This document shows, piece after piece, positions 27,122 to 52,850 of a DNA stretch of 64,000 bases. The position numbers and the translations under genes are program-made. The notes below the pieces were generated by a model. That model was not told where the DNA came from. It did no database searches and saw only the letters and a list, made by a program, of their open reading frames with translations. The stretch is taken from assembly GCA_963780185.1 (NCBI GenBank), contig CAWABA010000007.1:96001-160000 (forward strand). The letters run 5' to 3'. Source of the stretch: Candidatus Bathyarchaeota archaeon (lineage in GTDB: Archaea; Thermoproteota; Bathyarchaeia; Bathyarchaeales; Bathycorpusculaceae). The first letter of the stretch is position 1, and every line of letters begins with the position of its first letter.

Positions 27122-27289
27122 AAACTTTTGGAATATTCCAAAAGTTGCAGGCAAAAACCCACTGTTCTTGCGTTTACCCATTCAAAATCATCCAAAGAAT
27201 CAAGCCCTAAACCAGAAAAGCAACCCAAAACAAACCCCACGCAGAACCCGCCGACGAGGGGAGGGGGTCTAGTATTTACATCAAAAAAA
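27122..27289 (+). repeat. Dispersed ~165-bp intergenic element, copy 1
   Basis: 24-bp palindrome AACTTTTGGAATATTCCAAAAGTT, then AAGCCCTAAACC..AAAAGCAACCCAAAAC, then CCCCACGCAGAA.CCGCCGACGAGG..GGGGGT.TAGTATTTACATCAAAAA; matches 41321-41487 and 52686-52850. Confidence 0.9.
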
Positions 27290-27377
27290 CAAGGTAAAAA
27301 TGGCTTCGGCAAACCCAATCCCGCCATAGCAGGATTGTTAAATCTTTAACTATTTCTAGGCTCCATCAATTGTAGGT

Positions 27378-28931
27378 GTGATTAGTATGGAGTTAACGGT
27401 TGAACTCTTACCTATATTTACGGGCGGAAGCAGAATTGCCCTCCTCAGCGAAGAAAGCGCCAGCTCCCTAGGCGTGCACAGTTCCGATAGGATACGGATA
27501 AAATGCGGCAACCAAGAATTGATTGCCATCGCGAACATCGCAGAGTTTTTTTCACGTAAAACCATCGGGCTCTATGAGGAAACCGCTAAGGCGCTTGGCG
27601 TAAAGGAGGATGAAACGGTTTCGGTGGAGTTGGCTCCGCTTCCTGAGTCGCTTTTCAACGTGAGGGCTAAGCTGCATGGAGAACGTCTGCGCGAGAACGA
27701 TATCGTGACTATCGTTAGGGACGTGGTTGAGCGGCACCTAAGCACCGCCGAAATATCCGCTTTCTTAACCGCGCTTAGCATTCACGGGTTAAGTTCCAGC
27801 GAAAACGAGGCGCTATCCAGGGCTATGGTGGCTACGGGGAAAACGATGAGTTTCGGAGAAGGTCCCATCCTTGACAAGCACAGCGTCGGCGGGATTCCTG
27901 GCGACAAAACTTCGATGCTGGTTGTGCCCATCGTTGCCGCTGCGGGATACACGATTCCTAAGACTTCTTCGCGGGCAATCACTTCTCCCGCTGGAACCGC
28001 AGACAGAGTTGAAACCCTGTGCCCAGTAAACCTCGGCGTAGACGAGATAAAAGGGGTGGTGGCGAAGACGGGCGGGTGCTTGGTTTGGGGCGGTGCCTTG
28101 GAGCTTGCGCCAGCCGACGACCTCTTCATCCAAGTTGAGTACCCGTTGGGAATTGACCCAATGTTGCTGCCTTCGATTCTGAGCAAAAAGAAAGCCATGG
28201 GCGCCACACACGTCGCCATCGACATCCCCACAGGCATGGGCGCAAAAATCAAAACCCGAACCGAAGCCTACACGATAGCCTCGGATTTCGTGGACTTGGG
28301 AAAACGCCTCGGACTCAACATTCAATGCGCTTTAACCTACGGAGACCAACCCTTGGGCTGCGGCATCGGACCCGCATTGGAAGCCCGAGAAGCCCTAGCG
28401 ACCCTCCTCGGAGGCGGACCACCCGACCTGCGCGACAAAGCCGTCAGCCTTGCAGGGATGCTGTTCGAGATGGTTGGAACCGAGAATGGGCGCGCCAAAG
28501 CTGAGGAGATGATTGATTCGGGTAAGGCGGCGGCGAAGATGCGGCAGATTATTGCGGCTCAAGGTGGAAACCCTAAGGTGATGCCTGACGACTTGCCTGT
28601 GGGCTGTGAGCATGTTGAGGTGAAGTCGGAGCGGGCGGGCAAAGTCATTTGGCTCAGCACCGACAACATCGTACGCATCGCGAGGGAAGCCGGGGCGCCT
28701 AAAGAGAAAGGCGCAGGCATGATTCTGCACGCCAAACTCGGAGAAGCGGTGCATCGCGACAGCATACTCTACGAAATTTACGCGGAGAAAAACAGCAAGT
28801 TAACGTCGGCGCTGGAGCTTGCCAAGACGTTGCCGCCTATTCTGCTCACCACCAAACCCGCCGAGAAGATGATTCTAGACCAGGTGCCTGAGAAGCTTGC
28901 ACACGAAAAAACATTCAGCCTAGACAGGTAA
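27378..28931 (+). CDS. deoA: AMP phosphorylase
   Basis: DKHSVGGIPGDKT and PKTSSRAITSPAGTAD motifs, N-terminal barrel extension; clustered with RuBisCO and R15P isomerase. Confidence 0.94.
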   Translation: MISMELTVELLPIFTGGSRIALLSEESASSLGVHSSDRIRIKCGNQELIAIANIAEFFSRKTIGLYEETAKALGVKEDETVSVELAPLPESLFNVRAKLHGERLRENDIVTIVRDVVERHLSTAEISAFLTALSIHGLSSSENEALSRAMVATGKTMSFGEGPILDKHSVGGIPGDKTSMLVVPIVAAAGYTIPKTSSRAITSPAGTADRVETLCPVNLGVDEIKGVVAKTGGCLVWGGALELAPADDLFIQVEYPLGIDPMLLPSILSKKKAMGATHVAIDIPTGMGAKIKTRTEAYTIASDFVDLGKRLGLNIQCALTYGDQPLGCGIGPALEAREALATLLGGGPPDLRDKAVSLAGMLFEMVGTENGRAKAEEMIDSGKAAAKMRQIIAAQGGNPKVMPDDLPVGCEHVEVKSERAGKVIWLSTDNIVRIAREAGAPKEKGAGMILHAKLGEAVHRDSILYEIYAEKNSKLTSALELAKTLPPILLTTKPAEKMILDQVPEKLAHEKTFSLDR

Positions 28932-28990
28932 ACCAAAGCCCCGTCGAAAAAAAACCGCCAGCGATAGCCGCAGGGTCGCTTAGGGTCAAA

Positions 28991-29060
28991 AGGAACGGAA
29001 AGGAACGGGAAAGAACGGGGAACAACGAGAAGGAACGGGATTCAACGGGAAAAAACGTGA
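28991..29060. repeat. Seven-unit 10-bp phased tandem array with invariant AACG
   Basis: aggAACGgaa aggAACGgga aagAACGggg aacAACGaga aggAACGgga ttcAACGgga aaaAACGtga. Confidence 0.85.
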
Positions 29061-29119
29061 CCTGCCAAAGCGCCCAACCCCAAACAAGTCAAGCAACCCA
29101 AAACACAAACAGCAAATTT

Positions 29120-29485
29120 CTATCTTGTGATTGCCCCACCTATCAAGCCGCCGACAGCTGCAATTATACCCGCGAAAACCGCCAGTATTATGTCTTTTAC
29201 GCCTGTTTCTACGCCTTTTAGGGCTCCGAAGAACGCACCTGAAAACCCGCCTGAAATGCCGCCTGCAAACGCAAGCCCAACAAAGGCAACGACCGCGATT
29301 ATCACAGCGCCGAAGATGCCTGCGAGGAAGCCTGCAGCTAACCCTTTAAAGATGCCTCGCGCGATAAGTCCAGCAACTAGACCGCCGACAAAAATAGCCA
29401 AGACAAGACCCACTCCATGAATGAAATAGCCTATAGCCAGTATAACCAGGAACCCGACGAAAGCGCCTAACCCTGTGCTTCCCAA
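29120..29485 (-). CDS. Small Gly-rich membrane protein (DUF5518-like)
   Basis: GGLVAGLIARG...GFLAGIFG...GGLIGG. Confidence 0.7.
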   Translation of the reverse strand: MGSTGLGAFVGFLVILAIGYFIHGVGLVLAIFVGGLVAGLIARGIFKGLAAGFLAGIFGAVIIAVVAFVGLAFAGGISGGFSGAFFGALKGVETGVKDIILAVFAGIIAAVGGLIGGAITR

Positions 29486-29725
29486 ATTAATTCAACCTTA
29501 CAAGTTAAAGCTGGCTTGAACGCCTATAAGTTTTAGCCCAAACCCCTACAAAGACAACGCCCAGCCGTCGGCTTTTGAGGTTAAGCAAGGGCAACGCTGC
29601 ATTTTGGGGCAGCGGTCAGGCATTTTTTGCCACCGAACATGCGTTAATTTTAATAAAGGGATGTTGCAAGTATCCATAAAAGCAAGACGAGCGCAGGAAG
29701 AAAATTAAGGGGTAGTTTCTGAGAT

Positions 29726-30436
29726 TTGACAAAGCGCCAAGCCGTTTGGGTAATGACTAAAAAGGTATTCAGTCTAACCCTGATTCTAAACGCACTCATA
29801 ACGATAACCACGTTAGCAGGCATCCTCTACGGCTTTTACTTTGTTTGGCCAGGTTGGAAACCATATTTCCCTGACCTAATCAGCGGCAACATTTTCCTGA
29901 TCGCGGTGATAGCTGCACTCATCAACATTTTCCCAAGCGCAAGCATCGGGCGCAAATTGCACACGGGACGATTCCTCTTCCACCACTACGTTTACGGCTT
30001 CTTTGTGCTATTCTTGTCAAGTTTTTATGTCGTGGCGTTTACAGCTTTCACATCAATTAGCGGCTTGGTCATGCTCTTTCTAACCAACAATGCAAGCATA
30101 GCTGTTAACACAGGAAGATTCTTCATGTTGACGGGATTCACGCTGGTTCTCGACGACTTACCCGACGTGTCAAAACGGGTTGAATCGGCATTAAACAGGG
30201 TGAAATCTCAAGCCTGCAGGGTACGTCCAGTCTTCCATTACCTGCAGTTTATCACGGGAGCCATCACATTCTACATCGTTATCGCCATAGCTGTCTTTGA
30301 AGTCTATCATCCGTCCACAAACATCGCCAACTATCTAACCATGGGCACACTGCTGGTGACGAGCATCACGTCGTTTGCCTGCGTGAAAAGAAAATCATGG
30401 CTTAAAATTACGCCGCCAGAAGCTTGCCAACACTAG
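29726..30436 (+). CDS. Hypothetical polytopic membrane protein
   Basis: About six TM helices; FHHYVYG and LVLDDLPD motifs. Confidence 0.7.
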   Translation: MTKRQAVWVMTKKVFSLTLILNALITITTLAGILYGFYFVWPGWKPYFPDLISGNIFLIAVIAALINIFPSASIGRKLHTGRFLFHHYVYGFFVLFLSSFYVVAFTAFTSISGLVMLFLTNNASIAVNTGRFFMLTGFTLVLDDLPDVSKRVESALNRVKSQACRVRPVFHYLQFITGAITFYIVIAIAVFEVYHPSTNIANYLTMGTLLVTSITSFACVKRKSWLKITPPEACQH

Positions 30437-31140
30437 TCTTTTTGCTTAACGATTTCTTTGCCTATCTCTTCAAGCTGCGTCTTTGTGAAGGCTACAGCAC
30501 TTCTTTGTGAAGCTATGTGGTTTGGAAGCTGCGGAAGCTTAATAATGGGAACGGTGGGGTTGTTCAAGTGTAGGGTGACATGGTTGTTTGTGAAGACCAC
30601 TATGCCTTCAACCCAGACCCCGCCAAGCTTCAGAGACGGGGAAGAATGAATTAGATGTTTTATTTTGGAGGCGTTCCGCTTCACCTGCAAGCTTGGGCTG
30701 CTTTTGAAGTGGGGTTTGCCTGCCCGTTGCCACTCGTCGCCGTAACAGGTGATTTCGCCGTTCCAGTTCTTCGTCTCCAACACGAAGATGCCTGTTGGAC
30801 CCAAAATGATGTGGTCGATGTCTCCGCCGCCCCCACGCAGATGCAAGTCATTTAAAAGGATATAATCGTCGCTCAATTTGCTGCTGAGTAGTTTGGTTAC
30901 TTGTTTTTCGCCTGCCCAGCCGCCGCTGTAAATTCGGTATTTACGCAGGTAATAGTAGAATGCAGGCAAAGGCGCAAGGGACACAAGCAGCCCAGCCGCA
31001 TCTAGAAGGCTTAGGCTAAAGGAGTAAACCACGTTTAAGCAGACGGCGGAAACGATTAGGAAGAACACGAATAGGCACAAGGCTGCTTTCGCCAAGTTTT
31101 TTCTAACCTGGTTTTTCAGGTAACTGCCTGACCCTTTCAT
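30433..31140 (-). CDS. NERD (nuclease-related) domain protein with N-terminal TM helices
   Basis: GWAGEKQV and DIDHIILGPTGIFVLETKNW motifs; start placed at ATG 31140. Confidence 0.88.
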   Translation of the reverse strand: MKGSGSYLKNQVRKNLAKAALCLFVFFLIVSAVCLNVVYSFSLSLLDAAGLLVSLAPLPAFYYYLRKYRIYSGGWAGEKQVTKLLSSKLSDDYILLNDLHLRGGGGDIDHIILGPTGIFVLETKNWNGEITCYGDEWQRAGKPHFKSSPSLQVKRNASKIKHLIHSSPSLKLGGVWVEGIVVFTNNHVTLHLNNPTVPIIKLPQLPNHIASQRSAVAFTKTQLEEIGKEIVKQKD

Positions 31141-31265
31141 CTTCCTCAACGAATCCACCGCTCCATGACCTTTTCGTCCTAATGCTATATTACCTTTGCA
31201 TTTCTCGCAGGTCAAATGGGTACAATCAGCAATCTTTATAATCGCTTGCATTCAATGAAGCAAGC

Positions 31266-32456
31266 ATGTCCGCTGAAAAAGGAAAAACTGCTCATGGAAA
31301 GCTTTTCCTTCCCGCTTTGGGACTTGCAGTCTTCTCTGCGTGGCTCGTCACAGTCACGTTTGAACTCAACCTAATCGACATCGCTCACAGTTTCCATGTC
31401 CAAGTAGGCATAGCAGGCTTCACCGCCGCAGTCGGCTCCATCTCAGGCATCGCCGCTGGGTTGCTACTGTCCGTCCTAAGCGTACGCGTAAACCATAAGC
31501 TGCTGCTCATGACAGGGTTAGGTTGCACTTGTCTGGCTGCAATCGGATTCTTCCTAGCGCCGACTTTTGATTTGCTGCTGGTTCCCAACATCGCCGTGGG
31601 CGCTGGAATCGCAATGGCCACCGCGATGGCTTACTCGTTAATCGGCGATTTCTACCCGCTTGAAAAGAGGGGAAGAGCAATCGGCGGGATAGTTGCAGCC
31701 ACCGCCCTAACATACATCATCGGAACCCCCATAATAGGGGTGATTGCAAGCCTCAGCGACTGGAAGGCAACTCTAATCTGGTTTTCGCTGCCCGTAAGCT
31801 TGGCAAGTCTGCTGTTAGCGTTCGTGGCGATTCCAAACAAGACAAACCAGACGTTACCCGCCACTAGAGAGCCGTTCTTCGAAGGGTGCAAGCAGGCAAT
31901 TCTAAATAGGTCGGCAGTTGCCGCGTTGTTCGTCACGATGTTCAGTATGGCTGAGGGGTCAATCGCCTTCTACGCCGTCTCGTTCTTCCGCACACAATTC
32001 GCCATATCAGTAGAGCTCGGCTCTATGGTTATTCTGGTTGGAAACGTTCTTTCGGCTACAGGTGGGGTTGTGGCTGGACTTTTCGTGAACAGGGTAGGCC
32101 GCAAAAACCTGGGAACCGTAACTTGCCTGCTTGCGGCGTTGCTCACGTTGACATTCTCTTTCATGCCCACATTCGAATTGTCCTGGGTGCTTAATGCTCT
32201 GCGCTTCTGTTTCGCGGGCATGTCGTTCACCGCAGGCGGAAGCTTAGTTATCGAGCAACTACCCAAGTTCCGTTCAACCATGATGTCCCTCAACACGACC
32301 TTCATGAATCTCGGAATGCTTCTGGCGTCCCTGGCAGGCGGAGTAGCCCTCGACCTATACGGCTACCAAAGCCTCGCGTTGATTCTCGGCGGCTTAGGCG
32401 TGCTTGGCTCCGTTATCTGGATAACCCTAGTCAAAGAACCAATCAAAAATCCATAA
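31266..32456 (+). CDS. MFS transporter
   Basis: About 12 TM helices; EKRGRAIG and NRVGRK loop motifs. Confidence 0.9.
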   Translation: MSAEKGKTAHGKLFLPALGLAVFSAWLVTVTFELNLIDIAHSFHVQVGIAGFTAAVGSISGIAAGLLLSVLSVRVNHKLLLMTGLGCTCLAAIGFFLAPTFDLLLVPNIAVGAGIAMATAMAYSLIGDFYPLEKRGRAIGGIVAATALTYIIGTPIIGVIASLSDWKATLIWFSLPVSLASLLLAFVAIPNKTNQTLPATREPFFEGCKQAILNRSAVAALFVTMFSMAEGSIAFYAVSFFRTQFAISVELGSMVILVGNVLSATGGVVAGLFVNRVGRKNLGTVTCLLAALLTLTFSFMPTFELSWVLNALRFCFAGMSFTAGGSLVIEQLPKFRSTMMSLNTTFMNLGMLLASLAGGVALDLYGYQSLALILGGLGVLGSVIWITLVKEPIKNP

Positions 32457-32619
32457 AATCGTCAGAAGGAAGAAAAAAGAATGCTTAAGCGCAATGTATA
32501 GAGTGCTTCTATGCTTGAAGCGATAAAGATTAAGCCAAATATGAGCAGGCGGACAGCCGCTTTACCCAGAAATCACCCTGGAAATGCAAAAAACGCATGA
32601 CAGCAAACCCAAAGACCTG

Positions 32620-34548
32620 CTATGGTAGAGGAGAAGATTTCGCCATCCGACGTGAAACGGTTCGCCTTTTGCGTTGGATAATTTGCGTTCGATTATTTCC
32701 GATATTTGTAAAGTTATGAATTTTGTGGTTCCAAGGTAATGAGATTTTCTTTCTACTACAAAATATTACAAGCGCTATAAAGCATGCAGAAAGCGCGGCG
32801 AATGCACCATAGGTATATTCAGGAAGGACAAGGAAACCGCCTCCTACGGTTACGGCATTATTAACGAGAACATCTATGCCTACGTCATATCTGCCGTTGC
32901 CGTTTATGTCAATTAGAATATCATATTGCCCGGGTGATGCATTAGGATAGACGCTTGTGATGGCAATATTGCCTGAAATATCGGTCGTCACGCTGGTTGC
33001 TGTACTTGGCACAGTTGGAGTAACGGCTTCACAGTCAGTCCAATCTGTTTGATGCTGAACAATATCCATCGCATAGCTTTCGGACTTTTCAAAGTCAACA
33101 CCTTTTAGGTATACAGTTTCGCCTGAATTGAATATGTTTTTTTGCGTACCAGTTATATCGCATGTGGTAAGCTTAGAAGCAAGACCCCTTTCAGCGTCAA
33201 CTTGAATTTGCTCAGATGTTCTAGCGCAGTTATAGATTTTAACTTCGTCAATTATTCCAGCGAAGTATGTCCATGACCAATCTCCGTGACGACCTATTTG
33301 AACTGGAAGGCTATTGCTAAGGGTCGTTTGAGGAGTGCAACTGCCAGTAAGAACCTGTTGACCATTCACATACATAGCGTAACTATTGCCTGACCAAGTT
33401 GCAGCCAGATGGTACCATTTGCCTACTTGCGTGATTAGTTGAGAAGATTGTCCGCCAAGAATTGCTACTCCGTTGTCAGTCTCAAAAAACAATCGACCAC
33501 TATCAACAGTTCCAAGGAAATACTCCGCGTTTGTTGGAGGAGCCCAACCATCACATTTGCTGATTATACCGTTTGGTCGGGATGGGATACTATCTTCTTG
33601 AACCCAAGCTTCTAATGTTATCTGTGAAAACCCAGTCAAAGTCGGATTGTTCGGTACTTCAACCCAGCTATCAACACCGTTAAAATGTAGTGCCCCATCA
33701 ATTTTTCCTGTAGTCCACGTTGCATCGTAAATTATGCCGTTGTTTCCGTTTCCCGAGGAATCATAAGCCACATTGCCTGAGTCTTCATCAAACTTCCAAT
33801 AACCCACTAGTCCTGCATTGGGATTGGCGTAATCATTTTGAATATCCGTTGGGCTTCTTGCATAATTGTAGATTTTAACTTCATCTATTGCTCCATTAAA
33901 GTTATTATCATACCCCAATGAATGAGCGCCGATTGTAAGAGGGAAACTGGTTGGGTAATTTAAATTGCCTGAGAGGGCCTTGGTATTTTGCAGAGAGCCG
34001 TCAACATAGATTTTGAGGTTACTTCCATCATATGTGCCTGTAAGTTGATGCCATACACCTGCCTGCCAGTGACTAGTAGTTGTGGTGACTCCCTGCCAGT
34101 TTAGTCCTTGGAGAATAACTGCGAACCATATTCTGCCGTCATTGGGGTTGACCTGAAAAGTGTACTCATCTCCTTTATCAATAATGCTCGTAATTCGATT
34201 TAGGCTGCCGTCCAAAGTAACTGTCGGTTTAATCCAGCACTCTAAAGATATTGCATTCCCCTGAACAGCAACGCTTGGAGAAGTTGGAATAGAAACGTAG
34301 TCTTGAGAGCCATCAAAACTTAAGGCATTCGCAATAATTCCCTTAACCCAATGAGGCGCATAGCCAATAGTCCCAGTGTTCCCATTTCCACTGCTGTCAC
34401 TCACGGTAGTTCCTAAGCCTTCATCAAATTTCCAATAACCAAATAGCCCTGAAGATGGGACTGTATCTGCTATAACTTTAGAAGTTGGTATTATTAGCAT
34501 TGATGCACAAAGTACTACGAGAATAAACGTTGCTAGTGGCTTCTTCAC
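32620..34548 (-). CDS. Secreted protein with two LamG/concanavalin-like domains and a C-terminal VLPEY-TM anchor
   Basis: Two GYWKFDE...DSSGNGN...GxIDEVKIYN.AR repeats; start uncertain (GTG 34548 chosen). Confidence 0.85.
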   Translation of the reverse strand: MKKPLATFILVVLCASMLIIPTSKVIADTVPSSGLFGYWKFDEGLGTTVSDSSGNGNTGTIGYAPHWVKGIIANALSFDGSQDYVSIPTSPSVAVQGNAISLECWIKPTVTLDGSLNRITSIIDKGDEYTFQVNPNDGRIWFAVILQGLNWQGVTTTTSHWQAGVWHQLTGTYDGSNLKIYVDGSLQNTKALSGNLNYPTSFPLTIGAHSLGYDNNFNGAIDEVKIYNYARSPTDIQNDYANPNAGLVGYWKFDEDSGNVAYDSSGNGNNGIIYDATWTTGKIDGALHFNGVDSWVEVPNNPTLTGFSQITLEAWVQEDSIPSRPNGIISKCDGWAPPTNAEYFLGTVDSGRLFFETDNGVAILGGQSSQLITQVGKWYHLAATWSGNSYAMYVNGQQVLTGSCTPQTTLSNSLPVQIGRHGDWSWTYFAGIIDEVKIYNCARTSEQIQVDAERGLASKLTTCDITGTQKNIFNSGETVYLKGVDFEKSESYAMDIVQHQTDWTDCEAVTPTVPSTATSVTTDISGNIAITSVYPNASPGQYDILIDINGNGRYDVGIDVLVNNAVTVGGGFLVLPEYTYGAFAALSACFIALVIFCSRKKISLPWNHKIHNFTNIGNNRTQIIQRKRRTVSRRMAKSSPLP

Positions 34549-34734
34549 TGCTCTTTCCCCTGTTCTTTTCCCGCAGAAAACTATACCAAATGTTGTATTT
34601 TGTACTTTTTTAACATAGAAATGATAAGAAAAGCTTCGCTTCAACTCAAATTTTTGATATTAAACGCTATGGTGTGCCGCAAATAAGCGCAAATAAGTTA
34701 AAAAACAAAAGAAATTGAGAGTCTTTACACTTTT

Positions 34735-38453: not shown

Positions 38454-39387
38454 CTATTTTCTGTAGTACGGTCTTCGAATGTAGCTGTAGGCTTCGAGGG
38501 CTGCAGTGATGCCTTGACCGACCGCTGTGCCTACCTGCTTAATCGGCTGGTCCGTAACGTCTCCGGCGGCAAACACACCTAAAAGATTTGTTTGCTGTTT
38601 CACGTCGACTTTGATGTACCCATGATCATCGGTCTCTACCCCGGCTGCTTTAGCGAGCTGGCTATTTGGTGCTTCGCCGATTTGTACAAAAACCGCGTCC
38701 ACCGCCAACTCACTTGTTTTGCCTGTCATGTTGTCTGAGTAGGGATACAGTTCTGACTTGTTTGTCGCCTTTGATTTCTTGAACTTCAGTGTTCCACATA
38801 ACCGTAACGTTGTTCTTGGAAGATATGTCCGTGACTAAGCTTTCCTCCGCCCGGAAGGCTTGCTGTCTATGAATCACGACGACTTGGGCCGCTAACCCTG
38901 AAAGATAAAGAGTCGTTATGCAAGCAGTGTTTCCGCCCCCGACGACTAGCACTCGCTTGCCCTTAAAGAAAGGTCCATCGCATATGCCGCAGTAGCTGAC
39001 GCCTCTGCCTTTGAATTCGTTTTCGCCTTTAACACCGATCTCCCGGTAGTGTGATCCTGTTGAGTAGATGATTGCTTTGGCTTTGTATGTTGCTGCCGAG
39101 GTTTTAACTGTCTTCTCTTCGCCCTGCAACTCCAATTCACTTACGGGTTCCAGCTCGTGGATGGTGGCGCCGACCTTTCTGCAGTGAGAAGCCATTTTTT
39201 CAGCAAGCTCTCCTCCGCTGATTTCAGCAAACCCAGGGTAATTAACAACCGTGGATGCATCGGCGATTGTTCCTCCCGGAAGTTTCTCATCTAAAATTAG
39301 GGTTTTGAGTCCGCTTCTTACAGTGTAGATTCCGGCGGATAACCCCGCGGAGCCAGCGCCGATTATTATTACATCCCAGTTCGCCAT
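38454..39387 (-). CDS. trxB: Thioredoxin reductase, +1 frameshift near 38736
   Basis: GAGSAG, GVSYCGICDG, GGGNTA and VFAAGD motifs; the two ORFs join as LLDNMTGK if one base is removed. Confidence 0.88.
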
Positions 39388-39514
39388 AAACACGCATCTC
39401 TTTAAGGAATAAGGGTTTAGGGCGGTTTATGAATTGTTCGATTCTTTTTTGCCGTTGCCAATAAGCTGATAAAGGTGAGTAGATTTATTTGTTTTAGATA
39501 ATGTGTTTTGAGGT

Positions 39515-41284
39515 GTGGTTTTGGCTAGGTTCAGGTGCACTGTTTGCAACTACATTTATGATGAAGCAAAAGAAGGAATGAAATTTAACGATTTGCCTAA
39601 AGAATGGGTTTGCCCAGTTTGCGGAGCCCCCAAATCATCTTTTGTCATGTTGACGGAGACCATTGAGAAGAAAACAGAGAAAAAGATTGAACACACTGTT
39701 TCAGAAGTTCTGATAAACCAGATTGCCGAGTGGGGCGTCCAGTACGTTTTCGGTATCCCCGGTACTTCAACTTTGGGCGTCGTGGATGCCATCCGCAAAA
39801 CCGACGGAAAAGTCAAGTACATTCAAGTTCGGCATGAACAGACCGCTGCGTTTATGGCTTCAGCCTATGGGAAACTAACTGGGCATGTTGCGGCTTGCCT
39901 AGGTATTTCTGGTCCAGGCGCGACGAATCTGGCTACTGGCCTCTACGATGCGAAGCTGGATCATGCGCCTGTTCTGGCGTTGACTGGTTTGGTGGCTAGG
40001 CAAATGATTGGTCCCGGCTCGATACAGGAGATTGACCAGTACGCCTACTTTGAGCCGATATGCGTCTTCAACAAGATCCTTATGGCTGAAGAGCAAACCA
40101 CCATGCTGGCTACTCTGGCGATTAAGCACGCACTTTTAAATCAAGGCGTCTCCCACATCGGGATCCCAAACGACGTGCAGAAGCTGCCGTACGAAGCCGA
40201 CATCTTGCCGTTTGAAGGCAGAATGCCTAATCTCGCCTATGGGCAGGAAGAATGGCTGATTGAGAAGGCAGCAAAACTTGTCGACCAAGCCGCGCGGCCT
40301 GTGATTCTTGCAGGTTTCGGCGCACGGGGCCAAGGCAGCAAACTGCTAAAGTTGGCAACGAAGATTTCAGCGCCCATCATGACAACATTCAGAGCTAAAG
40401 GCGTCGTGGATGAGTATGATCCGCTGAGCATCGGCTGCCACGGCGACCTCGGATCAACCGCTTCCGCAGAACTAATGGGGAAAGCAGATTTGCTTATTGC
40501 GATCGGTTCGTCGTTTTCAGATTTGAGCCATATTCCCCGGAAACGCACGGTGCAGATTGATATTAACCCGCTTATGATTGCGCGCAGGTACCCTGTGGAG
40601 GCATCTTTGCTTGGCAACAGCGCTGTGCTTATCCCGAAGTTGACGGTGCGGGTTCAAGAGAAGAAGAACGCAGCTTACCTCGAGGAAGTTGCCCGTTTGA
40701 AGCAGCAATGGCTCAGCCAAGTGGAGAAGGAAGCTAACCCCACCGTGAAGCCGATTAGACCCCCCTACATAATGAAAGTGTTAAACGACAAGCTTGCCGA
40801 TGACGCCGTGATTTCATTGGATGTCGGCGAGAACTGCTGGTGGTTCGGCAGAAACTTCAGGATGCATAGGTCGCAGAAGATGGTGATGTCTGGAACTTTG
40901 GCGACGATGGGTTTCGGGTTGCCTGGGGCTTTGGCTGCGGCGTTAGCTTACCCTGGCAAGCAGATTGTTTGTTTGACAGGTGACGGCGGCTTAACGATGG
41001 TTTTAGGTGACTTCCTGACCGCGCTGAAGTATCAGTTGCCCATCAAAGTCTTCGTCATAAACAACAGACGCCTCGGCATGATCATGCAAGAACAGAAAGT
41101 TGAAGGCTACGAAAGCTGGCAAACCGACCTATTCGACTTCAGCTTCGCCGATTTTGCAGAGCATGCAGGGGGCTTTGGCATCAGGGTTGCTGAACCAGGC
41201 GACCTTGAAGCAGCGGTTGACAAGGCATTAGCATCTGACAAGCCAGCCATCGTTGACATAGAAACCGACCCGCGAAGATTTTGA
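39515..41284 (+). CDS. Rubredoxin fused to pyruvate oxidase-like ThDP enzyme
   Basis: [16 protein letters not shown] at the N-terminus; [19 protein letters not shown] and GDGG..NN motifs. Confidence 0.88.
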
Positions 41285-41320
41285 GGCATAAATTGGGCTG
41301 ACTTGTAGTTTTTGTGGTGG

Positions 41321-41487
41321 TTTTTGGTTGTAAATACTATACCCCCTCCCTCGGTAGGCGGCTTCTGCGTGGGGTCTGTTTTGGGTTGCTTTTTTGGTTT
41401 AGGCTTAAATCCTTTAAGATTTTGAGAGCTAAAGAAACAGGGAAAACCATTGTTTCCGCTTGAAGTTTTGTAATATTACAAAAGTTT
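41321..41487 (-). repeat. Dispersed ~165-bp intergenic element, copy 2
   Basis: Palindrome TTTTGTAATATTACAAAA at 41466-41483 and the conserved CCCCACGCAGAAGCCGCC..GAGGGAGGGGGTATAGTATTTACA core on the minus strand. Confidence 0.9.
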
Positions 41488-41601
41488 GCTGGAAACCCTG
41501 ATGGCATCAATCAAACAACATCTCGCGCAAAGCAGCAATCGTTTAGGGTTGCTTTTTCCTAGTTTAGAGCTTGAATCTGGTTTAGGTTAGATGGCAAAAA
41601 G

Positions 41602-43923: not shown

Positions 43924-44055
43924 CCTTAACCGAAATTATTGCCAGTGAAAGCCCTACGCTTCGCGCTTAAAAACAAAAAAGTAAATAACCTATTTAGGGT
44001 TATCTGGACACACAGTTTTCTTGGTGTTGTTTTATCGACGATTAGCATTGTCAAT

Positions 44056-44682: not shown

Positions 44683-44975
44683 GTTCTTGACTCCATGATT
44701 GTATTTTGCCAGAAACTATGGTAAATCAAAGTTCGGCGTAGGGATTACCCTTCTTCAATAAATTCCCCACAAACAAGTGATATGTGCTGTTTTAGTATAT
44801 AGGCTAGTAACCTAAGAAACGGTTTCTCTCCATGCAATTCCCAATTTTAGAACCCATTTAGGCGTGGTTGGCATCAAAATACATGGAAGAGTCCAACAAA
44901 ATTGGTTGGCAAGTTCGGGCATGTTTTTATCTGATGCCTGATTTAGGCTTCGATATAATTCAGAAGGGAGCTTTT

Positions 44976-45350: not shown

Positions 45351-45394
45351 CAATAGGCTCTGAGACAAACCTCAATGTTTTTTGTTTGCGGTCT

Positions 45395-46636: not shown

Positions 46637-46854
46637 GTAAACCGAAGTAGCTTGCGAGCCTAAAAAGCCTGATTCCAAAAAATTGAAGTGGGAAAGCTGG
46701 TCTGCCGAACCAATTTAAGAGATTCAAAGCTCTCGCGAAATCAGAAAAACACGAAACAATTCTCGAAAAATAGTCTAATTCGCATATGTTATTGAAAAAT
46801 TGTGGCAAACGTCTATATGTTAGATGTCAGGATTTGAACTAGCAGCGATCTAAA

Positions 46855-47037
46855 ATGAACCCAGAGAATTACAAAACAAAAAGGAAGGGACAGCCAAAAT
46901 CAAGAAACTCGGCTGGACGAGCCAAAAGACGCGCAGCAGCTAAACCTTGGATTCTAACCCCCAGTGCAAAACTACGCCAAATCTACGCCACCAAAACAGA
47001 ATGGGCAACAAAGATTCTGCCTAAACTAAAAGAATAG
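46855..47037 (+). CDS. Small basic hypothetical protein
   Basis: 60-aa ORF with a TATA-like element about 40 nt upstream; no motif. Confidence 0.4.
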   Translation: MNPENYKTKRKGQPKSRNSAGRAKRRAAAKPWILTPSAKLRQIYATKTEWATKILPKLKE

Positions 47038-47143
47038 ACACTTAGCAGTTCATTATATTTTCAAAATAATTAGAAATTAAATGCAATTTTTATTTTAAGT
47101 TTCTCTCATGCCAAATTGGAAATTAGGTTAGTTGGAATTTTGG

Positions 47144-47221
47144 TGGTGGGCCGAGCCGGACTTGAACCGGCGACCTTTGGCGTGTAAAGCCAACGTCCTA
47201 ACCAGGCTAGACGACCGGCCC
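47144..47221 (-). tRNA. tRNA-Val (anticodon UAC), intronless, CCA encoded
   Basis: GGGCCGGTCGTCTAGCCTGGTTAGGACGTTGGCTTTACACGCCAAAGGTCGCCGGTTCAAGTCCGGCTCGGCCCACCA folds into a cloverleaf. Confidence 0.96.
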
Positions 47222-47315
47222 GCACAGTTTGCTTATCTGTTGCTTGATTTAAGCTGTTTGGATTAAGAAAATGCGTTGGTTCATATTAGAATTTTCCTTC
47301 TCTACGCAGCCTTCT

Positions 47316-48239
47316 TTAGGTTTTGTTTTTGGGTTTATTGAAGGTTACCAGGTAGACGCCTATGAAAATCAGAACTGCGCCCGCGATGACTGAGGGGTAG
47401 AGCACTTCGCCGACGAACATGACCGCGAAAACCGCGGTTATCAGGGGTTCGGCGAACAGGAAGGTGCTTGCTGTTGCTCCTGCCTTCTTGAGCACGTAGA
47501 ACCAGATGAAGTACCCAAGCAGCGAGCATGTTAAAGCCAGGTAAAGCACGCTTAGCCAATCGCCAAGAGTCATGGTGAAGAGCTGCATGAAGGAGCCTTC
47601 AGCCAGCGAAAAAGGAATCAAGCATAAGCCGCCGATCAAGCTAACGTAGGCGACTACGAGGAAGGCATCGTATTTCTGCATGATTTTCTGCCCCAGCAAG
47701 CTGTAACCCGCCCACATCAAAGGGGTCGAAAGCAAAATCAGGGTGCCGACCAGAAACGTCATATTTCCCTCAAGGTTCAAAAGGTCCGCTAAAACAACCA
47801 GCAAAGTCCCCGCAGCCGCAACGGCGATGCCGATGAACTGCTTGTTTCTTAGGCGCTCTCCGAATAGCCGCGTGGAAAAAACGGTGATGAGTATGGGCGA
47901 TAGGAGGCAGACCATGATGGCTGCTATCGTGGAGCCTGCCAACTGGATCCCCGTGTATTGGATGGTGAAGAAGAAGGTGACGCCGGTAAGCGCCAAAACC
48001 AAAAAGGCAAAGAGGTCTTTTCTCTCAACGCTAAGCTTGTAGTTTGGGCTCATACGTTTCTTTACCAGTAGCACGATGAGGAAGAATGCTCCAGCCACAA
48101 GAAACCTAAACGTTGCGACGGCAACCGGCGTCAACCCGACATCCAAAAGCTGCTTGACAACGACAAAGGAGCTTCCCCAGAACATAATCAGCAAAACCAT
48201 TAAGAAAACCTGAAAAGAACTGATTGACTGGGAAGCCAT
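47316..48239 (-). CDS. EamA/DMT family transporter
   Basis: FWGSSFVVVK, RFLVA and EPL motifs; about 10 TM helices. Confidence 0.92.
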   Translation of the reverse strand: MASQSISSFQVFLMVLLIMFWGSSFVVVKQLLDVGLTPVAVATFRFLVAGAFFLIVLLVKKRMSPNYKLSVERKDLFAFLVLALTGVTFFFTIQYTGIQLAGSTIAAIMVCLLSPILITVFSTRLFGERLRNKQFIGIAVAAAGTLLVVLADLLNLEGNMTFLVGTLILLSTPLMWAGYSLLGQKIMQKYDAFLVVAYVSLIGGLCLIPFSLAEGSFMQLFTMTLGDWLSVLYLALTCSLLGYFIWFYVLKKAGATASTFLFAEPLITAVFAVMFVGEVLYPSVIAGAVLIFIGVYLVTFNKPKNKT

Positions 48240-48378
48240 GCCTCAAAATACAGCCAATTGCCTTTTAAGCGTTAAACCCGCCTTCAAACGAATTTCACAT
48301 GAAAAGGCAAATGAGCACATCTCTGGCTTAGGCTGATTTATATATCGAGTTGAACTTAGCTTTTTAAGGTGAACGATT

Positions 48379-48837
48379 TTGGTTTCTGAAAAACTCGTAG
48401 ATTCCCTCAACAAAGCTATAGCCCGCGAGCTCCAAGTCAGCATACAGTACATGTGGCAGCATATTCAAGTCACGGGGATGGACGGCGCCGTGGTGGAAGA
48501 CATCTTCCGCAAGACAGCCATCGCCGAAATGAAGCATGCCGAACGCCTAGCCGAGCAGCTGGACTACCTCAACGGAGTGCCAACGGTTAAGCCTGACCCG
48601 ATTTTCGTCGGCGGCAGCCTCATCGAGATGCTTACCCAGAACCAGCGGGATGAAGAGGACGCTATTGAACTTTACAAGGAGGCAATTCAGGCGGCGGCGC
48701 AGGAAGGCGACTACACCACGAGGCGGCTGCTGGAAGAGATTCTGGCGGAGGAGGAACGGCACATTAACACATTTGGCAAACTGCTCGTCGGCATGACTGA
48801 GCCATTCACCCAGCCTGAAACCTCACAAACGGGATAA
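48379..48837 (+). CDS. Ferritin/bacterioferritin-like diiron protein
   Basis: RELQVSIQY, EMKHAE, EEDAIELY and EEERH motifs. Confidence 0.88.
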   Translation: MVSEKLVDSLNKAIARELQVSIQYMWQHIQVTGMDGAVVEDIFRKTAIAEMKHAERLAEQLDYLNGVPTVKPDPIFVGGSLIEMLTQNQRDEEDAIELYKEAIQAAAQEGDYTTRRLLEEILAEEERHINTFGKLLVGMTEPFTQPETSQTG

Positions 48838-48922
48838 CAAAGAAAAACGGCTTTAAGGCAACTCAAGCGTTCCGCCTTTATAGCAAACACATATATCAAC
48901 GTGGGCAGATGGGTTTTCTTCA

Positions 48923-50737
48923 TTGGTGCCAAGTTTGGACAGCCCCGTGTTTTTAAGATGCCCAGTTTGCGGAATCCAGATAGATGTAGAGAACTCGGCA
49001 ACAAAAATCGAAGCAGCATGCGAAAGCTTCGGGGGCAAAAAACACTGTTTCTGCAGCGAAAACTGCCGACGGCACTTTCTGGAGGACCGCCGAATCGCGT
49101 ATTTCTCCATGGAAATAGGCATCTCCAGCATTATGCACTCGTACAGCGGCGGCTTAGGGGTTTTAGCAGGAGACATAGTGAAATCCAGCGCAGACCTGCG
49201 GCTCCAGATGGTTGCCATCACATTGGCAAGCAGAAAAGGCTACTTCAGGCAAAAACTTACCCCGCTAGGCGACCAGCAAGAGTTTCCTGACGAGTGGGAC
49301 CCCGCCAAAACCTTAACCCGCATGCCCAACGTCGTCACTTTAACCATTGAAGGGCGCCCCGTTAAAGTACAGGCGTGGCTTTACGAGTTTCAGAGCGTCA
49401 CAGGCGGCATGGTGCCGATTCTGTTTTTGGATACGGATATGGAAGAAAACGCTCCTGAAGACCGAAGAATAACAGATTCACTTTACGGCGGCGACAAAAG
49501 CTACAGGCTAAAACAAGAGATTGTCCTGGGCATAGGCGGCACGAAGCTGCTGAAGAATTTGCCTTTCAAAATCCGCAAGTACCACATGAACGAAGGCCAC
49601 TCCAGCCTGCTAACGCTTGAGTTGCTCAAAGAAAACGGTATGGATGCGGAAAAAGTCCAGAACCTCTGCGTCTTCACCACCCACAGCCCAGTAGAAGCCG
49701 CGTTTGACCAATTCTCCTACGAGCTTGTCCAGCAGATGCTTGGCAAAGAGTACCCGTTGGCTGAGATGAAGCAGTATGCGGGAGCAGAAAACCTCAACAT
49801 GGCCTTCTTAGCGCTTAACTTAAGCAAATACATCAACGGCGTCTCGTTGGCGCATGTGGATTACTCCAGAAAACTTTTCCCAGGACGCTACATAAGGGCA
49901 GTCACAAACGGAGTCCACTCCTCCACATGGACAAGCCTATATTTCCGTCAACTCTTCGACAAGTACATTCCCGGCTGGGCAAACGAACCAATCCTTCTCG
50001 CCAAAGCCACCGAGATTCCTAACCGAGAAGTCTGGGACGCCCACATAAAAGCAAAAACAGATCTGCTGGCTTTCATAGAGAAAACCAACGGAAAAACATT
50101 GGATCCACAGGCGTTGACACTTGGCTTCGCGAGAAGAGCCACAGGATACAAACGCGCAACCCTAATCTTCAGCGACCTGCACAGGTTAACTGATATTAAT
50201 CGGAAAGAAAAAATCCAGATGATTTTCGCTGGAAAAGCCCATCCCAACGACACCGACGGCAAAAGGCTTATAAGACAAATCCATGACTACGCACGCACGC
50301 TGGAGGGTCAGGTGGATGTTGTTTACTTGGAGAATTATGATATGGACATCGCGGCGAAGCTTACATCGGGCGTGGATGTTTGGCTTAACACGCCTCTGCC
50401 GCCTTTTGAGGCTTCAGGAACCAGCGGCATGAAAGCTGCCCACAACGGCGTCGTAAACTTCAGTGTCCTTGACGGCTGGTGGATGGAAGGCTGCATCGAA
50501 GGCGTCACAGGCTGGGCCATCGGACCGCACCCCAAAGAGCTACTGAGCGAAAACGAAAAACGGGAACTGGAACTGCAAGACCTCTACAGTAAACTCGAAT
50601 ACCTAATCGTGCCGACATTCTACCGCCAAAAAGACGCCTGGATAAACTTGATGAAGAACTCCATTGCAAAAATCGCCTACTACTTCCAGACGCAATGGGT
50701 TGTGCGAAGATACATCACAGAAGCCTACCTCATCTAA
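48923..50737 (+). CDS. glgP: Alpha-glucan phosphorylase with N-terminal YHS/TRASH-like domain
   Basis: CPVCG...FCSENC, then AYFSMEIG, YSGGLGVLAGD and EASGTSGMKA motifs. Confidence 0.92.
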   Translation: MVPSLDSPVFLRCPVCGIQIDVENSATKIEAACESFGGKKHCFCSENCRRHFLEDRRIAYFSMEIGISSIMHSYSGGLGVLAGDIVKSSADLRLQMVAITLASRKGYFRQKLTPLGDQQEFPDEWDPAKTLTRMPNVVTLTIEGRPVKVQAWLYEFQSVTGGMVPILFLDTDMEENAPEDRRITDSLYGGDKSYRLKQEIVLGIGGTKLLKNLPFKIRKYHMNEGHSSLLTLELLKENGMDAEKVQNLCVFTTHSPVEAAFDQFSYELVQQMLGKEYPLAEMKQYAGAENLNMAFLALNLSKYINGVSLAHVDYSRKLFPGRYIRAVTNGVHSSTWTSLYFRQLFDKYIPGWANEPILLAKATEIPNREVWDAHIKAKTDLLAFIEKTNGKTLDPQALTLGFARRATGYKRATLIFSDLHRLTDINRKEKIQMIFAGKAHPNDTDGKRLIRQIHDYARTLEGQVDVVYLENYDMDIAAKLTSGVDVWLNTPLPPFEASGTSGMKAAHNGVVNFSVLDGWWMEGCIEGVTGWAIGPHPKELLSENEKRELELQDLYSKLEYLIVPTFYRQKDAWINLMKNSIAKIAYYFQTQWVVRRYITEAYLI

Positions 50738-50795
50738 AACCCAAAACCAACCATTCCGAAAGAACCAAGAAAAATGAAAAGGAAAAGAAAGCGGC

Positions 50796-52142
50796 TTAGC
50801 GGAGTTTCATGAGGACCATTTCTGCGGCGAGTACCATGGGTTCCCATGTTTCGCATAGCGGCGGCGCGTAGGCTGTGTCTGCTTTCGCTAGTTCCCGAAC
50901 AGTCATCTGCTTCTGTATGGCAAAGGAGAGTGCGTTTATGCGTTGGGTGACTTCTTCGCCGCCGATTATTTGGGCTCCGATTATGCGTTCCGACTCTTTT
51001 TCAACGATAAGTTTGACTTTGATGGGTTTAGCTGTGGGGTAGTAGTCGGCTTTTGTCTTGCTGCTAATCGCGCCCACGACCACTTCGATGCGGTTGCGTG
51101 CAGCCGACGTTTCACTTATGCCCGTGGCGCCCGCCTCAACCTCGAAAAGCCGCGTTACCGCCGAAGCCAGAACACCCGTGAACTGCGAGTAGCCGCCGCC
51201 CGCGTTTGCCCCCGCAACCTTGCCTTCGCGAACCGCAATCGTGCCCAGCTGAGCGCAGGTTGCCCTATGCGTTATGATGTTTGGGGCTTCCGCGCAGTCG
51301 CCCACAGCGTAAACGTCTTTCACGTCAGTTTCCATGCGTGCATTCGTCTTTATCGCTCGGGTTTCCCCCAACGGAATGCCCGCGTCCACAGCGAGTTTGG
51401 TGTTGGCTCTCACGCCAAAGGAGCTAACGAATAGGTCGGCTTCGATTTTTTCGCCTCCAGCCATGACAGCTGTGACTTTGGTTTCGCCGACGAATTCTTC
51501 AACGGGTTTGGTAAGAAGGATACGCATGCCTTTTTCCTGCAGGTGATCCGCAACCAGCTTCGCCATGTCCGCGTCAAGCAGCTGAGGCAAAATCTGAGGC
51601 AGCATCTCTACAACCGTTACCTGCAAGCCACGCTCGATTAAAGCGACGCCGAGTTCCAACCCGATTAAGCCAGCGCCCATAATAACTGCGGATTTCGCGC
51701 CTGCCTTAACTGCCGCATCGATCTTTTCGCCATCCTCTATGCCGCGGAGGCTTAGCACTCCAGGTTTTTCCCTGCCTTTAATCGGCGGGGTGAAAGAGTC
51801 AGCGCCCGTTGAAATAACTAGGCTGTCGTATGGGAGAACTTCGGTGGCTCCTTCTTTGGTGGCGATGGTGACGGTTTTTTCTTTGGTGTTGATTGCTGTG
51901 GCTTTTGTTTCGCTGCGTAAATTCAGCTTCAGCATTTGAAAGTATGCTGGTGGGTAAACGATTAAGTCGTTGAAGCTGGGGATTTGTCCGCCGATTACGA
52001 AGGGTAAGCCGCATCGGGAGTACCCAGCGGTTTTTTCCTGTGTGATGAGGGTGATTTCGGCTGCTCGGTCTTTTTTTCGTGCGGCTGAGGCTGCTTCTAC
52101 GCCGGCAGCGTTTGCCCCGATGACGATTACGCGCCTTGCCAT
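50796..52142 (-). CDS. CoA-disulfide reductase / NADH oxidase family flavoprotein
   Basis: YSRCGLP single-Cys motif; GAGLIGLE, YAVGDC and YAPP motifs. Confidence 0.88.
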   Translation of the reverse strand: MARRVIVIGANAAGVEAASAARKKDRAAEITLITQEKTAGYSRCGLPFVIGGQIPSFNDLIVYPPAYFQMLKLNLRSETKATAINTKEKTVTIATKEGATEVLPYDSLVISTGADSFTPPIKGREKPGVLSLRGIEDGEKIDAAVKAGAKSAVIMGAGLIGLELGVALIERGLQVTVVEMLPQILPQLLDADMAKLVADHLQEKGMRILLTKPVEEFVGETKVTAVMAGGEKIEADLFVSSFGVRANTKLAVDAGIPLGETRAIKTNARMETDVKDVYAVGDCAEAPNIITHRATCAQLGTIAVREGKVAGANAGGGYSQFTGVLASAVTRLFEVEAGATGISETSAARNRIEVVVGAISSKTKADYYPTAKPIKVKLIVEKESERIIGAQIIGGEEVTQRINALSFAIQKQMTVRELAKADTAYAPPLCETWEPMVLAAEMVLMKLR

Positions 52143-52156
52143 CGCGACGCCTTCAC

Positions 52157-52573
52157 CTATTTTTGTTGGACCTGACACTTATGCCAGTCGACGGCTTTGT
52201 CAAAGTCCATTAAATTCGCAAGCTCCGCCTGCAAGTTGGAGGGTTTAACAACTATCAGCCAGCCTTTGATGTATGGGTCTTCGTTGAGGGTTTCGGGTTT
52301 GGACTGGACTTCCTCGTTCACTTCCTCGATTCTGCCACTTACCGCAGCTACAAGGTCGGAGACGGCTTTAACAGATTCCAATGTTCCGTAAGGCTCGCTT
52401 TGCTTAACTTCGGTGCCTACACTTGGCAACTCCGCGTAAACGATTTCTCGTAGAGCCTTCTGCGCGTAGTCGGTGATGCCCATGCGGATTTTGTCGCCTT
52501 CAACCTTTATCCACGCAAAATCTTTAGAGTAGTAGAGCCCTTCCGGCACTTCGTACGATTCAACTTTAACCAT
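52157..52573 (-). CDS. gcvH: Glycine cleavage system H protein
   Basis: GITDYAQ, ESVKAVS (lipoyl-Lys) and NEDPY..GW motifs. Confidence 0.95.
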   Translation of the reverse strand: MVKVESYEVPEGLYYSKDFAWIKVEGDKIRMGITDYAQKALREIVYAELPSVGTEVKQSEPYGTLESVKAVSDLVAAVSGRIEEVNEEVQSKPETLNEDPYIKGWLIVVKPSNLQAELANLMDFDKAVDWHKCQVQQK

Positions 52574-52685
52574 GACATGAACCTTCCAGATTTTTGACAG
52601 ATAACAAATTTCAGATTCAAAGATTAAAAGGTTTCACAGCGGTTTTGAAAAGGGGTGAATTTTCGGGGTTCATTTTTGTTTTGGG

Positions 52686-52850
52686 TTTTTGATGTAAATA
52701 CTAATACCCCTCCCTCGTCGGCGGCTTCTGCGTGGGGCTTGTTTCGGGTTGTTTTTTTGGTTTGGGGCTTGATTTTGTTGTGGGTTTTGGTCGGGTTGAG
52801 CTGGGTTGGGTGGGTTTTCTGTTTGGGGTTTTGTAATATTACAAAAGTTT
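52686..52850 (-). repeat. Dispersed ~165-bp intergenic element, copy 3
   Basis: Palindrome TTTTGTAATATTACAAAA at 52829-52846; core CCCCACGCAGAAGCCGCCGACGAGGGAGGGGTATTAGTATTTACATCAAAAA on the minus strand. Confidence 0.9.

Follow-up and report, generated by a model that had tools for sequence, protein, structure and literature searches.

A modular repeat in three intergenic regions

The question raised by this locus is what kind of genetic unit recurs between unrelated genes of a 64,000-nt stretch of Candidatus Bathyarchaeota archaeon DNA (assembly GCA_963780185.1, contig CAWABA010000007.1, positions 96,001–160,000), hereafter the window, whose own coordinates are used throughout. The unit is a non-coding element of 179–181 bp, present in three full copies and composed of a palindromic box A, a spacer, a box B, a box C and an A-rich tail; it represents a repeat family with recurring modules, constraint at the nucleotide level, fixed spacing and two palindrome alleles, and further copies lie on other contigs. 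Among the readings considered, a lineage-specific, non-autonomous modular repeat of the REP/BIME/REPIN type is the one tentatively favoured, at somewhat less than even confidence, and under it the element would be mobile, served by an enzyme acting in trans and recognised as a single strand.

Copy 1 occupies 27122–27302 on the forward strand (181 bp), while copy 2 (41309–41487) and copy 3 (52672–52850) lie on the reverse strand and span 179 bp each; the first-pass annotation had already placed three copies at these sites and on these strands, and its view that they form a genuine multi-copy non-coding family under constraint is upheld. Searched against the window by blastn, copy 1 retrieves copy 3 with E=6e-30 and copy 2 with E=9e-28, the nhmmer scores of the window copies range from 194 to 222 bits, and the nhmmer profile detects no additional complete copy in the 64 kb. 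The left edge, at AAAC, is abrupt and stays as drawn before, and the right edge has to be moved, with similarity continuing for another 15–20 nt or so through the A-rich tail, so that the earlier lengths of 168, 167 and 165 bp give way to the present unit. In copy 1, box A covers 27122–27143, the spacer 27144–27201, box B 27202–27234, box C 27235–27280 and the tail 27281–27302. The corresponding segments of copy 2, read on the reverse strand, are 41487–41466, 41465–41408, 41407–41375, 41374–41329 and 41328–41309, and those of copy 3 are 52850–52829, 52828–52771, 52770–52738, 52737–52693 and 52692–52672, its box C being one base shorter than in the other two copies. Taken singly, the box A pattern with up to three mismatches matches the window three times against 0.33 expected, a count reached by none of 100 shuffles, and the box C 18-mer with up to three mismatches matches four times, three of them exactly, against 0.04 expected. 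The clustering of the three copies within 25.7 of the 64 kb was also considered and is not significant (P about 0.35 by our own estimate).

Constraint on the boxes, the spacing and the palindrome

Comparison of the three copies reveals a sharp division between boxes and spacer. Pairwise identity reaches 20–22/22 in box A, 25–28/33 in box B and 37–40/46 in box C (76–100% over the boxes overall), with 13–16/22 in the tail, against 22–29/58 in the spacer; invariant columns amount to 80 of 101 in the boxes versus 13 of 58 in the spacer. A spacer of about 55 nt that had diverged freely was previously described; it measures 58 nt, and its ungapped identities of 23/58, 29/58 and 22/58 (38–50%) lie above the 24–29% expected from composition. 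A single 1-nt gap occurs in 159 columns, and, with differences distributed equally among the three copies, the tree is star-like. The spacers are thus homologous and have drifted by substitution alone, which speaks for constraint both on the boxes and on the length of the unit.

Box A carries the G..C allele in copy 1, where the palindrome is perfect over 24 bp (27123–27146, with an 18-bp core at 27126–27143); no other perfect palindrome among the 25 longest inverted repeats listed for the window is as long. Copies 2 and 3 carry the T..A allele in perfect 18-bp palindromes at 41466–41483 and 52829–52846, respectively, and the difference between the alleles is symmetric, as had been noticed at the outset. 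Folded as single-stranded DNA, the box A hairpin of copy 1 has a predicted energy of −9.0 kcal/mol (z −4.54; 0/200 shuffles as good), compared with −3.3 kcal/mol in both copy 2 (z −2.07; 11/200) and copy 3 (z −3.17; 4/200). Template switching within palindromes can produce symmetric changes of this kind without selection. Selection or a self-correcting mechanism is nevertheless likely, because both alleles recur unmixed in the larger set of copies described next.

Copies on other contigs

The G/T-rich strand of the element contains few stop codons, and the 71-residue reverse open reading frame (ORF) of copy 1 was therefore used as a query against protein sets. A word-based protein search with this ORF gave no candidate. 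An exhaustive phmmer search gave five matches, of which P0011, P0013 and P0015 are plainly translations of other copies, while P0012 and P0014, two long tandem-repeat proteins, were dropped as low-complexity. A profile built from the three retained sequences added P0017, P0018 and P0019. The six spurious public ORFs thus represent copies from other contigs, which range from 948 bp to 762 kb, and none of the six contains a Pfam domain.

The sequences were anchored on the box B translation and laid out without gaps, so that the database copies are judged from peptides and not from DNA. In this layout the distance from box B to box A is identical in all seven copies that have both boxes (copies 1, 2 and 3, P0013, P0015, P0018 and P0019). 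The palindrome peptide LEYSK, corresponding to the G..C allele, is read in copy 1, P0013, P0015 and P0018, and the peptide stop-YYKS, corresponding to the T..A allele, in copies 2 and 3, with P0019 stopping at the same residue. Among the six copies in which both positions are readable, four therefore have G..C, two have T..A and none is mixed. A loss of spacer length or palindromy in a larger alignment had been named in the first-pass annotation as an argument against function; both are kept here.

P0011 and P0017 are organised differently. Their box C and box B lead into another conserved module, and the 48 residues displayed beyond box B contain no box A; between C and B, P0017 carries an insertion of about 55 residues, and P0011 has a partial box C in tandem. 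The element family is truly modular. Past box A of P0015, residues of the G/T type give way to a P/T/Q/K-rich stretch resembling copy 1 read forward (PPTR at offset 40–43 versus 41–44; BLASTP E=0.066 over 16 residues), which hints, as a lead, that P0015 may consist of two half-elements placed head to head and sharing box A.

At the nucleotide level, the exact box C 18-mer occurs at 104 loci in 185,579 species-representative genomes, with a best nhmmer score of 13.9 bits; as part of an element it is absent from these genomes, the matches listed being chance occurrences, mostly in G+C-rich bacteria. The exact pattern is too strict, given that the related copies found through proteins differ in this box C core. 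Because the 18-mer does not stand in elements of the species-representative genomes, the element sequence appears to turn over quickly between lineages. Plasmid and phage collections contain no blastn match to copy 1.

Solo and partial modules

Modules also occur alone in the window. A solo box B at 41541–41594 on the reverse strand (nhmmer E=0.003; blastn 84% over 38 nt at 41541–41578, E=1.7e-5) has the orientation of copy 2 and lies 53 nt upstream of its box A, about 8 nt past the stop codon of the signal peptidase gene. A box B-like module at 29065–29105 on the forward strand (blastn 78% over 41 nt, E=7e-4) includes an exact 14-mer at 29091–29104 and sits between the AMP phosphorylase (+) and DUF5518 (−) genes, whose 3' ends both face it, immediately behind a tandem array. 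In this array (28993–29057, forward strand), which precedes the solo box B directly and is flanked by the same two 3' ends, a 10-bp unit (consensus GAACGGGAAA) is repeated 6.5 times with the periodicity of a helical turn.

The core decamer of box B, AACCCNAAAC, occurs 11 times in the window, with nine occurrences intergenic and distributed over five intergenic regions. Strongly A/C-rich intergenic stretches of the window are confined to places that hold this decamer or the element. One isolated decamer, at 50738–50747 (+), follows directly on the stop codon of the glucan phosphorylase gene within an A/C-rich stretch and could conceivably be a box B fragment. A box C 11-mer in the 3' end of the DUF5518 gene (about 29136–29160) was considered as a trace of an element inserted there; this was rejected as native coding sequence, because the C-terminal GGLIGG..TR belongs to the protein family itself, being present in 5 of 9 aligned homologues.

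Tests for structure, coding capacity and known element classes

At gathering score, Rfam matches only tRNA-Val in the window and nothing in the element, in agreement with the first-pass annotation, which could assign it to no described family. At E<=10, the sequences around the three copies give 5, 4 and 0 matches of 9.6–18.1 bits, compared with gathering scores of 37.8–75, and none is common to the copies. The whole element folds no better than shuffled sequences on either strand (z −0.16 to +0.84), and neither does the end formed by boxes B and C with or without the tail, folded as single-stranded DNA on both strands (z −0.11 to +0.57), which speaks against a structured non-coding RNA, one of the options offered initially. 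Box A is the only part that folds better than shuffles. Consistently, Alifold recovers the box A stem, with one compensated pair, and otherwise weak pairing between C and G runs. Readings as a C/D-box RNA, an H/ACA RNA or a riboswitch were rejected by eye against features known to us, and Rfam agrees.

The hallmarks of transposition that the first-pass annotation had failed to see are likewise missing from the window. Alignment of the left 45 nt with the reverse complement of the right 65 nt yields inverted-repeat scores of 10, 12 and 14, which are reached by 419, 231 and 63 of 500 shuffles, respectively, and the three copies have no direct repeat in their 10-nt flanks. AAAC stands at the left edge and again inside the A-rich tail, with similarity continuing past the tail AAAC, and the 5 nt to the left of the edge differ in all three copies (GGCAT, CCAGC and CCGCT). 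No transposase, integrase, recombinase, ParB or Orc1/Cdc6 gene was found among the window ORFs, of which 63 were scanned with NCBIfam and 15+24 with Pfam.

Conservation is at the nucleotide level, as indicated by the reading of box C in different frames, and the ORFs are probably by-products of composition. ORF starts and ends differ in every copy; two in-frame stops interrupt the reverse ORF of copy 2, and a frameshift inside box C affects that of copy 3. In P0015 and P0017 the core of box C is translated in what is frame 3 of copy 2 (LGRR...), and the sequences match nonetheless. An Atlas search with P0013 gave a recognition of 1200 with a best score of 0.78, where 2300 is reached by 91% of real families.

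Several further candidates were set aside. An archaeal replication origin, in which origin recognition boxes cluster around an AT-rich unwinding element beside an orc1/cdc6 gene, was rejected, with no Orc1/Cdc6 among the 63 ORFs, with copies 11–14 kb apart, and with origin-box consensus sequences compared from general knowledge; a GC-skew profile between the oppositely oriented copies is dominated by gene orientation. A CRISPR array or mini-array was rejected since box A and box B differ and the spacers are homologous to each other and not unrelated. Spacers acting as guides or targets were rejected within the window, where their best match elsewhere is a 13-mer with E=0.037.

Comparison with known repeat systems

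The closest resemblance is to REPINs, which are described as having well-conserved ends around a spacer that varies more but matters in its length, with changes that compensate one another and singlets left as relics, and as non-autonomous elements replicated by a single-copy transposase (PMC3116915). The present element is likewise short, non-coding and extragenic, with conserved end blocks, a weaker spacer of maintained length, compensatory changes in the palindrome and partial units. It differs in that a REPIN carries the same REP in inverted copies at its two ends and forms a long hairpin as a whole, whereas here the ends are unrelated and the fold equals that of shuffles; moreover, no RAYT-like gene lies in the window and the host is an archaeon, RAYT systems being bacterial. 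With MITEs, or miniature inverted-repeat transposable elements, the element shares a size of about 180 bp and a non-coding, intergenic, multi-copy occurrence in either orientation. MITEs are known in several archaea and, in the section of the source drawn on here, are named for few archaeal genera only (PMC10969869). The element differs from them in having neither terminal inverted repeats nor a target-site duplication, and no parent insertion sequence is found in the 64-kb window.

Enterobacterial BIMEs and pneumococcal BOX elements consist of a few named modules that also occur alone or recombined, in extragenic positions, and BOX folds stably. The element is modular in the same manner, with modules alone or in other combinations between genes, but the sequences are unrelated, the host is archaeal and, compared with BOX as we know it, there is no stable fold. 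IS200/IS605 elements lack terminal inverted repeats and target duplications, have hairpins near both ends and use a short conserved target by the left end. A derivative of them would agree with the missing terminal inverted repeats and target duplication, the strand asymmetry and the palindrome close to one end; it would not agree with folding at box A only, with left flanks that differ, or with a window devoid of TnpA and TnpB. Type I toxin and antisense RNA repeats are intergenic, about 150–180 nt long, with a short hydrophobic ORF on one strand. The element is similar in position, size and the presence of such an ORF, and differs in that ORF boundaries and frame are not conserved and no stable RNA fold is predicted. 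Since defining features of the REPIN, MITE and IS200/IS605 families were looked for and are lacking, the element is not a member of any of these three. A literature search on such elements in Bathyarchaeia returned nothing specific.

Weighing the favoured reading and its rivals

A non-autonomous repeat of the REP/BIME/REPIN type is favoured because conserved end blocks, a drifting spacer of fixed length, symmetric change of the palindrome, solo modules and reshuffled versions all match REPINs. In this scheme, an enzyme encoded elsewhere in the genome would copy or move the element, recognising at one end the palindrome of box A and at the other, a fixed distance away, the box B–C block, probably in the form of a hairpin on a single DNA strand. 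Selection for recognisability would keep the boxes and their spacing constant while the spacer drifts, and the solo box B modules and rearranged copies would be decayed or recombined relics. Strand-specific single-strand transposition, as in the IS200/IS605 and RAYT families, leaves neither terminal inverted repeats nor a target duplication, and from this general knowledge the asymmetric ends and the missing duplication would fit such a mechanism. Several observations weigh on the other side. The window ORFs scanned (63 by NCBIfam, 39 by Pfam) include no gene for a transposase, integrase or recombinase, and no two copies are near-identical over their full length, as recent transposition would give, pairwise identity being about 76%. 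The palindrome stands at one end only, with a box B–C end that folds no better than shuffles, and the T..A hairpin is weak (−3.3 kcal/mol). For the star-like phylogeny and the nearly saturated, indel-free spacers, long-term purifying selection at each locus, and hence a host function, is at least as simple an account, and the whole case rests on three full copies in 64 kb, which is a small sample.

That host function forms the main rival, which is unlikely overall although a substantial contender: a host cis-acting DNA site serving as a bipartite docking platform for regulation or chromosome architecture, in which a putative dimeric protein would bind the box A palindrome, further putative proteins would bind the 80-bp box B–C block, and the 58-bp spacer would hold both in fixed helical register. 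Boxes kept roughly 5–10 times better than the spacer, the exclusion of indels over 159 columns and a B-to-A register identical in 7/7 copies, four of them from other contigs, speak for such a site, and the absence of excess fold implies that the sequence itself, and not a structure, is conserved, the T..A hairpin being too weak for an obvious structural signal. Genes for winged-helix regulators also lie nearby (ArsR family, about 52985–53287; TrmB-like, 18596–19528 and 1842–2300). The neighbouring genes, however, have no common function, and copy 2, lying between two 3' ends, has nothing to regulate. Half-sites of a dimer need not change together, yet 0 mixed alleles are found in the 6/6 readable copies; modules standing alone and reshuffled are unusual for a fixed docking platform; operators of a regulon are usually about 20 bp and not 180 bp; and the box C core is not retained in species-representative genomes. 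Compared with the repeat reading, a docking site would be at least as good an explanation of the missing indels, of the old, star-like divergence and of the weak T..A hairpin, and a poorer one of the reshuffled modules and context-free locations. A more pointed form, in which the element would not be selfish and would be a host-maintained bipartite docking site for a chromosome-level function such as domain organisation, segregation or a replication-fork barrier, is improbable; the two palindrome alleles would then mark two co-evolving classes of site, and we know of no element of this kind described in archaea.

Action as an RNA is rather doubtful, if a little less so than that chromosome-level function. 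Either the unstructured A/C-rich strand would serve as a leader, 3'-untranslated region or antisense element, or the G/U-rich strand would give a small RNA with the box A hairpin plus U's as its end. The G/U-rich strand does carry a C-rich stretch resembling an anti-Shine–Dalgarno sequence, the start of box A (AAACTTTT) matches 8/10 positions of the promoter-like AAnCTTTTAA in our own reading, a small conserved A-rich patch follows about 30 nt downstream of box A, and conservation of the tail decays where a start site for the TATA-like motif of box C would fall, by inferred placement. The promoter matrix (a Gibbs motif from 48 upstream regions, scanned over the element) yields, on the contrary, no site that both scores highly and is conserved, box A has at its position 9 a G that the motif disfavours (frequency 0.01), and TAGTATTTACA of box C is unlike the TATA form of this genome, as in the tRNA-Val promoter GCTTAAAT. 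Read-through from the co-oriented upstream genes of copies 1 and 2 is possible, since the element strand has no T run of at least 5. The reverse strand has runs of 5–7 T; archaeal terminators carry T runs, and copy 2 probably supplies the terminator of the pyruvate-oxidase-like gene. The T runs lying on either side of box C would stop any longer transcript from the reverse strand, and neither the lack of an Rfam match nor folds equal to shuffles on both strands favours a functional RNA. Very improbable is a small hydrophobic membrane peptide encoded by the G/T-rich strand in the manner of type I toxin repeats, with a stop codon in box A that doubles as a terminator hairpin. ORFs of this strand are called as proteins in six public records, the T..A allele puts TAA exactly in box A of copies 2 and 3 with P0019 ending at the same residue, box B translates into a conserved hydrophobic stretch, G[FL]VLGCF.G.G, P0018 and P0019 have Met at the same position, and 4/8 variable codons of box B are synonymous (counted by eye). 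Few stops and hydrophobic residues are, however, what a G/T-rich strand gives by composition alone, and start and end points differ in every copy, copy 2 stopping after 32 codons and copy 3 having a frameshift upstream. Box C falls into another frame in P0015 and P0017, the Atlas recognition of 1200 is far below the 2300 of 91% of real families, and conservation is equally high over some 70 nt that would lie upstream of any conserved start.

Genomic setting and other features of the window

The three copies lie in both orientations in three unrelated intergenic contexts, adjoining housekeeping genes without a common function, and the tandem, convergent and divergent arrangements are as first described. 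Copy 1 lies between the gene for a 266-residue secreted protein (+, ends 27103) and that for AMP phosphorylase (+, starts about 27388); copy 2 between the pyruvate-oxidase-like gene (+, ends 41284) and the signal peptidase gene (−, ends 41602), whose 3' ends both face it; and copy 3 between the divergent starts of gcvH (−) and the ArsR-family regulator gene (+). The A+C fraction of the element strand is 0.65, 0.64 and 0.78 in copies 1, 2 and 3, so that the strong A/C richness originally ascribed to one strand holds for box B and copy 3, the other copies being milder. Around copy 3 the A/C-rich composition runs about 85 nt past the box A edge (52851–52936, reverse-strand reading), making a skewed stretch of 296 nt (52641–52936) that holds short 9–11-bp tandem units; 52851–52936 has no significant similarity to the element. 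A perfect 18-bp palindrome at 52947–52964 (TTGATTACATGTAATCAA) lies 21 nt upstream of the likely ATG of the ArsR-family gene (52985) and is probably that gene's own operator; it has the hexamer TGTAAT/ATTACA in common with box A, in opposite arrangement.

The window looks like archaeal chromosome, with genes for PriS, archaeal RecJ, S15, type III RuBisCO, AMP phosphorylase and many oxidative-stress proteins; the Atlas clusters nearest to its RecJ come mostly from Bathyarchaeota and Nitrososphaerota, a weak pointer. The oxidative-stress genes are dense at 1–11000, 38454–41284 and 48379–52573 and comprise superoxide dismutase, rubrerythrin, flavorubredoxin, an OsmC-like protein, protein disulfide oxidoreductase, thioredoxin reductase and a Dps/bacterioferritin-like protein, as well as a CoA-disulfide reductase/NADH oxidase adjoining gcvH and the pyruvate-oxidase-like enzyme, which has an N-terminal rubredoxin domain. 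The thioredoxin reductase gene (38454–39393, −) appears to be split into two overlapping ORFs, 38710–39393 and 38454–38729, matching profile positions 1–221 and 219–300 of 300, which could be a frameshift, a sequencing error or recoding. A copper-type P-type ATPase ORF (11011–13181) matches CopA from profile position 293 onward and is preceded by a 518-bp gap; the N-terminal metal-binding part may have been split off or lost. Possible defence or toxin–antitoxin genes, all on the reverse strand, encode a NERD-domain protein with a weak match to a methylation-associated defence kinase, a nucleotidyltransferase-domain protein and a PIN-domain protein (30433–31251, 55406–56023 and 58709–59164).

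Two neighbouring paralogous secreted-protein genes (25% identity, E=3e-9) have an upstream block of about 60 nt in common, at 25156–25297 and 26174–26302; it contains repeated AGTCAAG..CTTGACT palindromes and a TATA-like box, CCTTTTATC, and also faces the type III RuBisCO gene on the other strand. The tRNA-Val gene (47222–47260, −) has a clear GCTTAAAT box about 25–32 nt upstream of its 5' end and provides a reference promoter form, and the motif AAnCTTTTAA recurs upstream of many window genes.

Significance

The constraints on this element are unusually clean, with a palindrome that changes only symmetrically and a spacing that is invariant in all seven measurable copies from several contigs, in a unit that fails the defining tests of MITEs, REPINs and IS200/IS605 derivatives. 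To our knowledge, the non-coding repeat families of uncultured archaea are almost unexplored. Repeats on a stop-poor strand can be traced through spurious ORFs in protein databases, an approach that may be reusable. Mobility of the element would suggest a transposition system that has gone unrecognised, or an archaeal equivalent of those REPIN-like replicators that are inherited vertically; a role as a host site would make it an entry point to the regulation of genes or the organisation of chromosomes in organisms for which genetics is lacking.

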